This document shows positions 24,401 through 26,076 of a DNA stretch of 48,179 nt, piece after piece. The stretch's first letter is position 1; each line of letters begins with the position of its first letter. The position numbers and the translations under genes were made by a program. Source of the DNA: a phage. The notes under the pieces were generated by a model, which worked only from the letters and a program-made list of their open reading frames with translations, had not been told where the DNA came from and did no database searches. The stretch lies in the sequence record OZ503099.1. One strand, written 5' to 3'.

Positions 24401-24426
24401 CAAGCCCCATCACGGGGCTTTTTTAT
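24401..24426. terminator. Rho-independent terminator (bidirectional)
   Basis: AAGCCCC-ATCA-CGGGGCTT hairpin followed by TTTTTTATT. Confidence 0.6.
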
Positions 24427-24901
24427 TGCGCAGCGAATTATACTGCGCCTCACACGCTAATCCTGCCTCTCTTGCCCTGTCAGCGTAATCTGCCAGCTGT
24501 CTATTTCTTTCGACAGATTTGCTGAGCACGTCGGAGAGCAAAACTCCGGTTTCTGCGGCTGGGTTGCCAATGGACTCAGCGGTGGAATATCCGACGAGCT
24601 GCTTGCGGATATTTGCGAGCTGTTGCTGCAACCTGCCAGACTTAGAAGCAGCATTGACAGCATCATTGCGCGCAGCGTCAATCCTTTGCTGTGCGTCGGC
24701 CTGAATCTTTTGCAGTTCTGCATTGCGTCGTTGCTCCTCTTGTTCGTCTGCGGCCTTTTGCTCTGCGATTGCTTGAGTCTTGCCTTCTGCGTATCGCTGG
24801 TCTCCGTAGCTGATGATTTCGCTACGCGCCCACAGCACGCCAGCTGCAACAATTATAATAATTGCCAGCGGTCGCCAGTATCTACTGAGTACTGTTTCCA
24901 T
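24410..24901 (-). CDS. Rz: i-spanin (Rz-like)
   Basis: 163 aa; N-terminal transmembrane anchor then Gln/Ala/Arg-rich coiled-coil-like domain; downstream of endolysin/holin; contains embedded Rz1 frame. Confidence 0.7.
   Translation of the reverse strand: METVLSRYWRPLAIIIIVAAGVLWARSEIISYGDQRYAEGKTQAIAEQKAADEQEEQRRNAELQKIQADAQQRIDAARNDAVNAASKSGRLQQQLANIRKQLVGYSTAESIGNPAAETGVLLSDVLSKSVERNRQLADYADRAREAGLACEAQYNSLRNKKAP
24457..24666 (-). CDS. Rz1: o-spanin (Rz1-like lipoprotein) embedded in Rz in another frame
   Basis: MMLSMLLLSLAGCSNS: signal peptide plus lipobox LAGC, Pro/Ser-rich mature part; entirely inside the Rz gene. Confidence 0.6.
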   Translation of the reverse strand: MMLSMLLLSLAGCSNSSQISASSSSDIPPLSPLATQPQKPEFCSPTCSANLSKEIDSWQITLTGQERQD

Positions 24902-25023
24902 TTCCCGAAACTCCAGCCAGCCATAAGTGAGGATGGGCTATGCAGTTGGTTATAAAGTGCAATCCCTTGGTGGTCTGGTATGCAAAGTAAAATCCACTCC
25001 GCATCTTCATTAGTTTATGTATT

Positions 25024-25263
25024 TCACGCATTCTTGCTTTCATCTTTTAACCTCTTATTCGCCTTATTCATCGCATGCATCTTGCCGAGTATGGAGAGCA
25101 GTAGAATGGAATAGCTGATAGCCTTTACCGCGATTGGCGGCAGCGCTGCTTTCAGGTCATCAGGCATCATTACCCACACATGCATCATTGCATCAGGCCA
25201 CAGCTGCAATAGCGAGCAGAATGAAATCCACGCACCAAGCAGCCAGTTGCTTAGCTTTTTCAT
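25024..25263 (-). CDS. Holin-like small membrane protein
   Basis: 79 aa with two hydrophobic segments and charged C-terminus; ATGA overlap with endolysin stop. Confidence 0.5.
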   Translation of the reverse strand: MKKLSNWLLGAWISFCSLLQLWPDAMMHVWVMMPDDLKAALPPIAVKAISYSILLLSILGKMHAMNKANKRLKDESKNA

Positions 25264-25724
25264 GCCACGGCCCCGCCAGCATCCTTGTACACCTGAATCA
25301 GCTTATCCAGTTTCTGCTCATGCTGACCATAGCCAGCGCCCGGCAATGAAGCCCAGCGGGAGCGGCATTTATGGATAGCATCAGCAATGCGACCAGCTTC
25401 AATGTCGGCAGTGGCTTTGCATTCGCGGATTAACTTCATTGCAATAGCGTCCTGTGATGCTGGGGAGAAGTCCGGCAGGCACAGCTGCTTTTTGTACGCG
25501 TCATAAAATTTAGCCAGCACCTGATAGCGCCCGGCGGCGGTGGACTTGATGCCCAGCTTAGGCAGGCTAATCAGCTTGCGTGGGTGGTCGGAGTAATCAG
25601 TAAACAGTGAGCCGCCAACAATCACATCATAGCCATGATTATTGGTTTTCTGTCGTCCGTTATCCGTACCCTCGCTGTACGCCAGCATATCCAGAAACGC
25701 CTTCATGTTTTTGCTAATAGCCAT
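25260..25724 (-). CDS. R: Endolysin, lambda R-like lytic transglycosylase
   Basis: FLDMLAYSEGTDNGRQKTNNHGYDVIVGG...WASLPGAGYGQHEQK closely matches lambda R as I recall it; start at internal ATG 25724. Confidence 0.85.
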   Translation of the reverse strand: MAISKNMKAFLDMLAYSEGTDNGRQKTNNHGYDVIVGGSLFTDYSDHPRKLISLPKLGIKSTAAGRYQVLAKFYDAYKKQLCLPDFSPASQDAIAMKLIRECKATADIEAGRIADAIHKCRSRWASLPGAGYGQHEQKLDKLIQVYKDAGGAVA

Positions 25725-25992
25725 ACCAGTAAACCTCTTTTTCAGCCTTGCGTTTTGCTTTGTCGCCAGTCTTCTCGCCCCACACGATGAAATGAGCAAC
25801 AGCACATGAGAAGCAGCGAAGGTTGTGTTTCTTCAGAAGCGTTGATTTGCGGAAAGTGTCAATACCAATGTCGGTGGCGAGGCTTGTCAGTGCATCAAAC
25901 TGATTCTGCGTTGTCTCGGTGGTGATGTAAGGCGATATATCCACGGCATCGGTGATTCCAAGCGTTTCCATGCCGCGTTGCGATAGTTTCAT
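25714..25992 (-). CDS. Small ORF resembling the C-terminal lobe of a GH24 (P22/T4-type) lysozyme; possible gene remnant
   Basis: TQNQFDALTSLATDIGIDTFRKSTLLKKHNL parallels NQNQYDALCSLIFNIGKSAFAGSTVLRQLNL of P22-type lysozymes (from memory); N-terminal catalytic region absent; strong RBS AGGAGG. Confidence 0.4.
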   Translation of the reverse strand: MKLSQRGMETLGITDAVDISPYITTETTQNQFDALTSLATDIGIDTFRKSTLLKKHNLRCFSCAVAHFIVWGEKTGDKAKRKAEKEVYWYGY

Positions 25993-26036
25993 CCTGCCTC
26001 CTGTTTAAATAATGATTAATTCTATCACAACAGGTA

Positions 26037-26076
26037 TTGATGTAGATTGAGAGGTGGTGCATACTATCTACATCAA
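26037..26076 (+). promoter_or_regulatory. Promoter of island D with palindromic operator-like site
   Basis: TTGATG (26037-26042), 17 bp, CATACT (26060-26065); inverted repeat TTGATGTAGAT (26037-26047) / ATCTACATCAA (26066-26076). Confidence 0.45.

Follow-up and report, generated by a model that had tools for sequence, protein, structure and literature searches.

An apparent lysozyme-derived pseudo-enzyme at the head of a siphovirus lysis cassette

Introduction

Endolysins are usually viewed as single-purpose enzymes, and phage lysis cassettes as sets of holin, endolysin and spanin. In the phage DNA analysed here (sequence record OZ503099.1; the whole stretch of 48,179 nucleotides is hereafter called the window), the lysis cassette opens with a 92-codon gene related to lysozymes, and an intact endolysin gene follows directly behind it. 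Genome papers merely list two 'endolysins' for these phages. Is the short gene a second enzyme, the remnant of an older one, or a protein with a task of its own?

The DNA of the region is 88-92% identical to that of many Salmonella, Escherichia and Shigella siphoviruses, including Bas77-80, DS8, 64795_sal3, Vi II-E1 and LPST10. According to the BASEL paper, these phages belong in or near the genus Skatevirus, with the Klebsiella Roufvirus as outgroup. PADLOC and NCBIfam gave no informative name for the 92-aa protein, and in the full-text literature we found no functional or evolutionary treatment, proteomics or ribosome profiling of it. The 'two endolysins' of phage S10 (PMC9677904) proved not to be relevant, since S10 is a Jerseyvirus with a different cassette.

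Results

The cassette and its expression signals

The genes and signals of the cassette are listed in Table 1. It had been claimed beforehand that the short reading frame has a strong AGGAGG ribosome-binding site and overlaps the start of an intact endolysin gene similar to lambda R, and both claims hold: its last 11 nt overlap the start of the GH104 gene, the product of which is 65.6% identical to lambda R across 153 of its 154 residues and matches the endolysin family PHROG 90 (E=5e-56). The motif AYSEGT of the GH104 protein aligns with AWSEGT of lambda, so that the catalytic Glu, which we take to be the counterpart of Glu19 of lambda R, is kept. Enzymes of the lambda R type have no binding domain of their own. 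The start of the holin gene overlaps the GH104 stop codon (ATGA), and the holin matches Pfam PF25612 (E=3e-9) and the holin family PHROG 13249 (E=5e-48); a holin of this DUF7940 type is the constant partner in all cassette types described below. The larger spanin matches PF10721 (E=4e-30) and PHROG 312 (E=1e-48), and the Rz1-like reading frame, embedded in another frame of the spanin gene, matches the Rz-like spanin family PHROG 11621 (E=8e-33).

Table 1. Positions of the lysis genes and of the expression signals in the window
Feature	Position	Strand	Basis
Putative sigma-70-like promoter: TCTACA, 16 nt, extended -10 TG-n-TAGAAT	26019..26046	-	Consensus scan
Shine-Dalgarno AGGAGG of the 92-aa gene, 4 nt before ATG	25997..26002	-	Read from sequence
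92-aa GH24 derivative, gene 1 of the lysis cassette	25714..25992	-	ATG start, 92 codons
GAGG, ribosome-binding site of the GH104 gene, 9 nt before ATG	25734..25737	-	Read from sequence
GH104 endolysin, lambda-R-like, 154 aa, intact	25260..25724	-	Matches to lambda R and PHROG 90
Holin, 79 aa, DUF7940, two hydrophobic segments	25024..25263	-	PF25612, PHROG 13249
53-aa ORF between holin and spanin	24882..25043	-	ORF list
Rz-like inner-membrane spanin, 163 aa, DUF2514	24410..24901	-	PF10721, PHROG 312
Rz1-like outer-membrane spanin, 69 aa, lipobox LSLAGC	24457..24666	-	PHROG 11621

The expression signals in front of the short gene are not peculiar to it. The extended -10 element, an upstream ATCTACGTCAA element and the ribosome-binding site are kept before all cassette types, that is, before the intact GH24 gene as well as before the short types A to D, and the sequence AACAGGAGGCAG(A/G)ATG also serves the intact GH24 endolysin gene of Bas81. 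The GAGG of the GH104 gene lies inside the 3' end of the 92-aa coding sequence. The RNA around the GH104 start is less structured than that of shuffled sequences (z=+1.6), and a hairpin that would mask this start and enforce coupling is thus absent. As GH104 has a GAGG of its own and the RNA shows no excess structure, its translation should not require strict coupling to the short gene. A fusion of the short protein to the endolysin by programmed frameshifting was also considered and rejected: GH104 lies in the +1 frame and the GH108 gene found behind type D in the -1 frame, and there is no long slippery run.

A lysozyme lobe without the catalytic residues

The 92-aa protein matches the Pfam family Phage_lysozyme (PF00959) with E=2.3e-10 and 41.3 bits (cut-off 22.3), which bears out the proposed similarity to GH24 lysozymes. 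The match is limited to profile positions 55-114 of 125, so the two-lobe domain is incomplete; the intact GH24 protein of Bas81 matches positions 1-125. The proposed likeness to the C-terminal lobe of P22- and T4-type lysozymes was right for P22: a profile of the short family finds the P22 lysozyme 2anv with E=1.4e-10, aligning query residues 13-85 with residues 67-141 of the 146 in the chain. T4 lysozyme matches the model of the 92-aa protein weakly (Foldseek E about 1), and the 'T4-type' designation therefore applies at the fold level only. The protein also matches PHROG 10457 (95 positions) over its full length (E=2.3e-42, residues 1-90 against profile positions 1-95); the name of this family, 'endolysin', is a database annotation.

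Alignment with the intact proteins of Bas81 and KP591P1 locates the missing part, and agrees with the earlier statement that the N-terminal region with the catalytic Glu is absent. The protein begins with the seven residues MKLSQRG, the same as in Bas81, and continues after a gap of 46 residues with the C-lobe, which is 45-52% identical to that of the intact GH24 proteins of the sister phages. The deleted residues, 8-53, contain FEG...YPD...YTAGYG, i.e., the catalytic Glu, Asp and Thr of GH24. There are two further small deletions, of a 4-aa and a 5-aa loop, and a new Tyr-rich C-terminal tail (YWYGY) that is characteristic of the short forms. The cleft motif of GH24, [YF]-N-[ILV]-G, is altered as well: it reads T-D-I-G in type A, T-S-I-G in types B and C and A-A-I-G in type D. 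With the catalytic parts lost, the protein should be unable to cleave peptidoglycan. A split enzyme was rejected, as a search of the whole window with the N-lobe of Bas81 gave no significant match and no N-lobe is encoded elsewhere in it.

Most of the about 140 genomes with the gene annotate it as 'endolysin', 'lysozyme', 'lysin' or 'lysozyme R'. Considering the missing catalytic lobe, these names appear to be a systematic and misleading over-annotation. Several of these genomes, in which the 92-aa gene figures as a further 'endolysin' or 'lysozyme', have been proposed for food or feed use. Cloning the gene in the hope of an antibacterial enzyme should yield no activity.

One motif of the C-lobe stands apart from other lysozymes. 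Residues 56-63 of the 92-aa protein (window 25804-25827) read His-Asn-x2-Cys-x2-Cys, and this motif does not vary among the short forms or in the intact GH24 proteins of Bas81 and of phages like Roufvirus. Where it stands, Leu-Asn-x-Gly-Asp-x2-Gly is found in other lysozymes of the GH24 family. Possibly this lineage of lysozymes has a metal or disulfide site of its own here.

Intact GH24 endolysins in the same slot

In Bas81, a phage of the same cluster, and in the Roufvirus-like Klebsiella phage KP591P1, the slot holds an intact GH24 gene of 146 aa with holin and spanin directly behind it, and no GH104. GH104 is absent from all 25 loci in which a GH24 of this type is intact. The enzyme is a working one, to judge from LysG24, the intact orthologue of phage MK54, which was lytic in experiments (PMC8978833).

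Two comparisons at the DNA level show where the cassettes part. The homology between the window and Bas81 spans the promoter, the ribosome-binding site and 20 nt of the reading frame, and restarts exactly at the holin start. On the Roufvirus-like backbone, locus L066 (short gene plus GH104) and locus L041 (intact GH24) have flanks that are 91-93% identical; their identity stops 5 nt before the start codon and returns at the holin start, with the pair of short gene and GH104 replacing the single GH24 gene. The 92-codon gene is thus a derivative of the original P22-type GH24 endolysin of this phage group, formed by an in-frame deletion. The retained promoter, ribosome-binding site, start codon and first seven codons point to an internal deletion and not to a simple N-terminal truncation. 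The original prediction had offered, as one of two readings, the footprint of a lysis-cassette replacement. The replacement is supported by the intact GH24 genes that relatives carry in this slot without GH104, but the gene is not a passive footprint, as its purifying selection shows.

Selection on the short gene

All 35 copies of the type found in the window (type A; the window and 34 loci from IMG/VR and GenBank) have 92 intact codons and an ATG start, and the three copies of type B, a 93-codon variant, are likewise intact and start with ATG. In GenBank, the protein is present at full length and at least 80% identity in about 140 phages, nearly the same count as the 143 records that carry GH104. 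In all, the short gene is preserved in upwards of 150 related phages. Pairwise dN/dS is 0.11 for the 92-aa gene, compared with 0.12 for the holin, 0.03 for GH104 and 0.29 for the spanin. Counted along the edges of a minimum spanning tree, there are 372 synonymous versus 157 non-synonymous changes (omega 0.12). The constraint is uneven: the first 28 residues are less constrained than the remainder (omega 0.27), and residues 29-88 reach 0.06-0.07, near the value of the intact GH24 gene (0.04-0.05). Synonymous divergence is normal, and therefore overlapping signals do not account for the constraint. The gene does not look like a pseudogene, with no broken frame among the compared copies and an omega of 0.11-0.12; it appears to have long been kept under purifying selection as a protein.

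Two 'variants' of 64-80% identity, P0029 and P0033, were left out of this comparison. They arise through compensated frameshifts, and many genes of the contig, including the neighbouring ones, are broken; locus L040 (ERZ1948697 contig_319) belongs to this case together with P0029. These variants are probably errors of long-read sequencing and not biology.

Four allelic types and an exchanged enzyme

The short gene occurs in four allelic types: A, that of the window; B (P0034), 56% identical; C (L066-68), 55% identical; and D (P0055 and relatives). Types A, B and C are mutually saturated at synonymous sites yet have the same indels. All four types share one layout, with 30 residues before a QF motif, the 5-residue loop deletion and H-N-x2-C-x2-C, and they share the ending E-[KR]-E-[VI]-Y-[WY]-Y-G-Y. 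Omega is 0.02 within type C and 0.10-0.23 within type D. In a neighbour-joining tree the clade of the short forms has a low bootstrap of 32%, and we suspect that the comparison of rooted with unrooted clades distorts these values; with bootstraps this low, the common origin of the short forms rests on the shared indels.

The partners of the short gene are less constant than the gene itself. Type B adjoins a GH104 that is 94-96% identical to the GH104 of type-A phages, which means that short gene and GH104 recombine independently. Type D (P0055, P0205) lies on syntenic siphovirus contigs in which the gene behind it encodes a GH108 enzyme with a PG_binding_3 domain (171 aa), followed by a holin of the same kind and a spanin; here the stop codon of the short gene overlaps the GH108 start via ATGA. 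The short protein was therefore retained while the enzyme behind it was exchanged, and it has outlived at least one endolysin swap. The second reading of the original prediction, a domesticated lysozyme-derived binding module, fares well as far as domestication is concerned, considering the omega of about 0.12, the four types and the two downstream endolysins; its 'binding' part is a conjecture, and the changed cleft motif does not favour canonical substrate binding.

Several further sequences touch on this family. A single contig of 1,088 bp (L095, positions 95-538; P0207) encodes a full-length relative of 147 aa upstream of GH108. It combines the C-terminal hallmarks of the family with a full N-lobe in which the catalytic Glu is replaced by Tyr and the Thr by Arg, and its DNA is about 80% identical to that of L091 and L094 across the shared part. 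It could be an intermediate that survived or a product of recombination, and one contig cannot decide between the two. On an unrelated metagenome contig (L093, positions 120-425; P0082), a protein of 101 aa has a lysozyme-like N-terminal helix fused directly to the C-lobe, with the motif T-A-D-I-G-I-D, no G-L loop and a match to PHROG 10457 (E=1e-19); no lysis genes are recognisable among its neighbours. This protein could be a distant family member or an independent case.

In a library of 1.84 billion representative proteins, two clusters only match the family profile strongly. Many proteins of 80-120 aa among the top matches from this library fit the C-lobe but keep the Y-N and G-L motifs; they may be truncated gene calls, and we did not count them as the same phenomenon. 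Among the IMG/VR loci fetched with P0034, all the more distant matches (L069-L090) lie in open frames of at least 144 aa, except L089 (75 aa).

Predicted structure and physical properties

The predicted protein is soluble, has a mass of about 10.5 kDa and corresponds to the N-terminal helix and the C-terminal lobe of a lysozyme. When GH24 homologues are included in the alignment, AlphaFold2 predicts six helices in a compact arrangement (pLDDT 95.8, pTM 0.88), and the top PDB matches of this model are all GH24 lysozymes (TM 0.7-0.8, normalised to the query). With the short forms only, the same helices are obtained at low confidence (pLDDT 54.8), and for that reason we infer autonomous folding from homology and from the subdomain of T4 lysozyme. 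In T4 lysozyme, helix A together with residues 60-164 makes up a C-terminal subdomain that folds autonomously.

A search for a membrane segment found none in any of the four types (the maximal mean Kyte-Doolittle value over 19 residues is 0.8-1.1), and the 92-aa protein is accordingly neither a holin nor a membrane antiholin. The pI ranges from 5.4 to 8.8 among the types, which does not suggest a simple charge-based activity.

Discussion

A non-catalytic role in lysis

What, then, is selected in a lysozyme that has lost its catalytic lobe? Purifying selection despite lost catalysis argues for a pseudo-enzyme with a non-catalytic function. We favour, with moderate confidence, a protein that is made together with the endolysin from the late lysis promoter and serves lysis itself. 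An in-frame deletion took residues 8-53 out of the ancestral GH24 endolysin, and with them the catalytic Glu, Asp and Thr. Since the old late promoter, the ribosome-binding site, the start codon and seven codons stayed in place, the 92-aa protein would be the first product of the lysis transcript. Cleavage of peptidoglycan falls to the downstream transglycosylase of the lambda R type or, in the sister lineage, to GH108. In the scheme that we propose, the C-lobe would keep a second, non-enzymatic activity already present in the old endolysin; its target would be a partner common to all cassettes, either the DUF7940 holin or murein, and its effect would be to tune the timing or the efficiency of lysis. 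Because the function outlasts the exchange of the enzyme while holin family and promoter stay constant, a lysis role inherited from the C-lobe seems to us the best choice. The comparisons above show the descent of the gene, the loss of the catalytic parts, the conservation of the expression signals, the selective constraint and the persistence through endolysin swaps; synthesis of the protein, its independent folding and its binding target are inferences.

Neither candidate partner is singled out by the sequences. The change of the cleft motif from Y-N to T-D or T-S does not favour canonical binding of substrate or murein. Phages that have the short gene and phages that lack it differ little in the DNA of the holin, so that there is no sign of co-adaptation with the holin. 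A broader proposal, which we put forward tentatively as a possibility, is that the GH24 C-lobe in general bears a second, non-catalytic function in the control of lysis (for example, holin binding or marking of murein), and that the mini-protein is this function alone. If true, lysis regulators derived from lysozymes would form a new class, one that persists whether GH104 or GH108 does the cutting.

Alternative explanations

Purifying selection shows that there is a function, not which one. Alternatively, then, the protein could have been co-opted for a job outside lysis, such as anti-defence, exclusion of competitors or interference with the GH24 enzyme of co-infecting relatives, in which case its place in the lysis operon would be historical. 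The deep, saturated types and their mosaic distribution (type B next to a type-A-like GH104) are what one sees in conflict genes, and the altered cleft residues would also fit. Yet the short gene is always first in the lysis cassette and under the late lysis promoter, no defence or anti-defence model of PADLOC matched, and late expression suits anti-defence poorly; we regard such a job as unlikely.

Another possibility is that the reading frame is merely a platform, kept open for the promoter, ribosome-binding site and translation of the downstream endolysin, with an amino-acid sequence of no importance. It does supply the only recognisable promoter of the cassette, it overlaps the start of GH104 by 11 nt and that of GH108 in type D through ATGA, and it houses the ribosome-binding site of GH104. 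Coupling, however, selects against stop codons and not against amino-acid changes, so it does not explain a dN/dS of 0.06-0.12 at normal dS. Moreover, GH104 with its own GAGG and its RNA less structured than shuffles (z=+1.6) leaves nothing to unmask, and the ending E-[KR]-E-[VI]-Y-[WY]-Y-G-Y persists in type D despite the different geometry of the overlap. On balance, this explanation is quite unlikely.

The arrangement also calls to mind PlyCB and PlyCA: the C-lobe might be a non-catalytic subunit that binds murein and forms a complex with GH104. A small gene directly upstream of the catalytic gene and overlapping it, the nearly one-to-one co-occurrence with GH104 in GenBank (about 140 against 143) and a lambda-R-type enzyme without a binding domain would all agree with this. 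The short family, though, is also paired with the unrelated GH108, which already bears PG_binding_3. No co-variation is seen either, type B (56% identical to A) standing beside a GH104 94-96% identical to that of type A, and the canonical cleft residues are changed. We therefore hold a subunit of this kind to be very unlikely.

A neutral remnant, recently disabled and not decayed yet, would fit the origin of the gene by deletion in an endolysin that a second one had made redundant, but it is hardly credible for a gene that is intact in every examined copy and in about 140 GenBank genomes, has an omega of 0.12 (372 synonymous against 157 non-synonymous changes) and exists in four types of identical architecture with saturated synonymous sites. 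A second active endolysin, as most database records have it on the strength of GenBank and PHROG 10457 annotations, would be the least credible reading of all, contradicted by the absence of the segment with the catalytic Glu, Asp and Thr, by a match to half of the Pfam domain and by the lack of a complementary N-lobe in the window.

Relation to known systems

The nearest relatives are the GH24 endolysins of sister phages, i.e., Bas81 gp20, KP591P1 gp43 and LysG24 of MK54, with which the 92-aa gene has the slot, promoter, ribosome-binding site and first seven codons in common. Each of these is the sole endolysin of its cassette and has the full domain of 125 positions with the catalytic Glu, Asp and Thr, unlike the 92-aa protein. 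The lysozyme of P22, gp19, is a more distant relative. At the level of the fold (Foldseek E about 1), the protein resembles the C-terminal subdomain of T4 lysozyme, which consists of an N-terminal helix and the C-lobe, the very part retained here; the T4 fragment, however, is a laboratory construct.

A phage GH24 domain kept for a non-lytic role has a precedent in SpmX, a localisation factor of Caulobacterales. SpmX is a bacterial membrane protein that works in cell polarity, and it has kept the whole muramidase domain. In contrast, the 92-aa protein is reduced to the C-lobe, and its gene still lies in a phage lysis operon. SpmX is found among both the sequence and the fold matches of the 92-aa protein (NCBIfam NF051871; PDB 6h9d).

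Small soluble proteins whose genes lie upstream of or overlap an endolysin gene, and which act together with the endolysin, are exemplified by PlyCB of the streptococcal phage C1 and Gp1 of the mycobacteriophage Ms6. Neither is known to be derived from a lysozyme, and each is specific to one enzyme partner, whereas the short family pairs with GH104 or GH108. An endolysin remnant also sits beside a holin-like protein in the toxin locus of Clostridioides difficile, where TcdL accompanies TcdE; it differs in enzyme family and host, belongs to a bacterial pathogenicity locus and has no functional endolysin downstream.

The 92-codon gene is best read as a lysozyme-derived pseudo-enzyme inside an active phage lysis operon. 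A dead half-lysozyme kept through at least one endolysin replacement suggests that the lysozyme fold is moonlighting, or that Gram-negative lysis has an unrecognised fourth player. Bas77-80 (short gene and GH104) and Bas81 (intact GH24) are near-isogenic phages of E. coli K-12 in a public collection.

Further observations on the locus

In the divergent intergenic region, a perfect inverted repeat of 11 bp, TTGATGTAGAT / ATCTACATCAA (26037-26047 and 26066-26076, with 18 nt between the halves), overlaps the lysis promoter at its -35 region. Its promoter-proximal half, ATCTAC[A/G]TCAA, is kept in types A to C and in both loci with intact GH24, and partly in type D and L095. An operator for a late regulator is one possible role of the repeat, a bidirectional element another.

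At the other end of the cassette, the 53-aa reading frame overlaps holin and spanin genes by 20 nt each and had no match in Pfam or PHROG. It is intact, at 67-100% identity, in only five related loci; elsewhere the holin gene joins the spanin gene directly. It may be an optional extra gene of the lysis cassette. Finally, the plus strand carries at 24402-24420 a GC-rich hairpin and, behind it, a run of T. This feature overlaps the stop codon of the minus-strand spanin gene, at a junction of convergent transcription units, and probably acts as a terminator of the plus-strand genes, perhaps bidirectionally.
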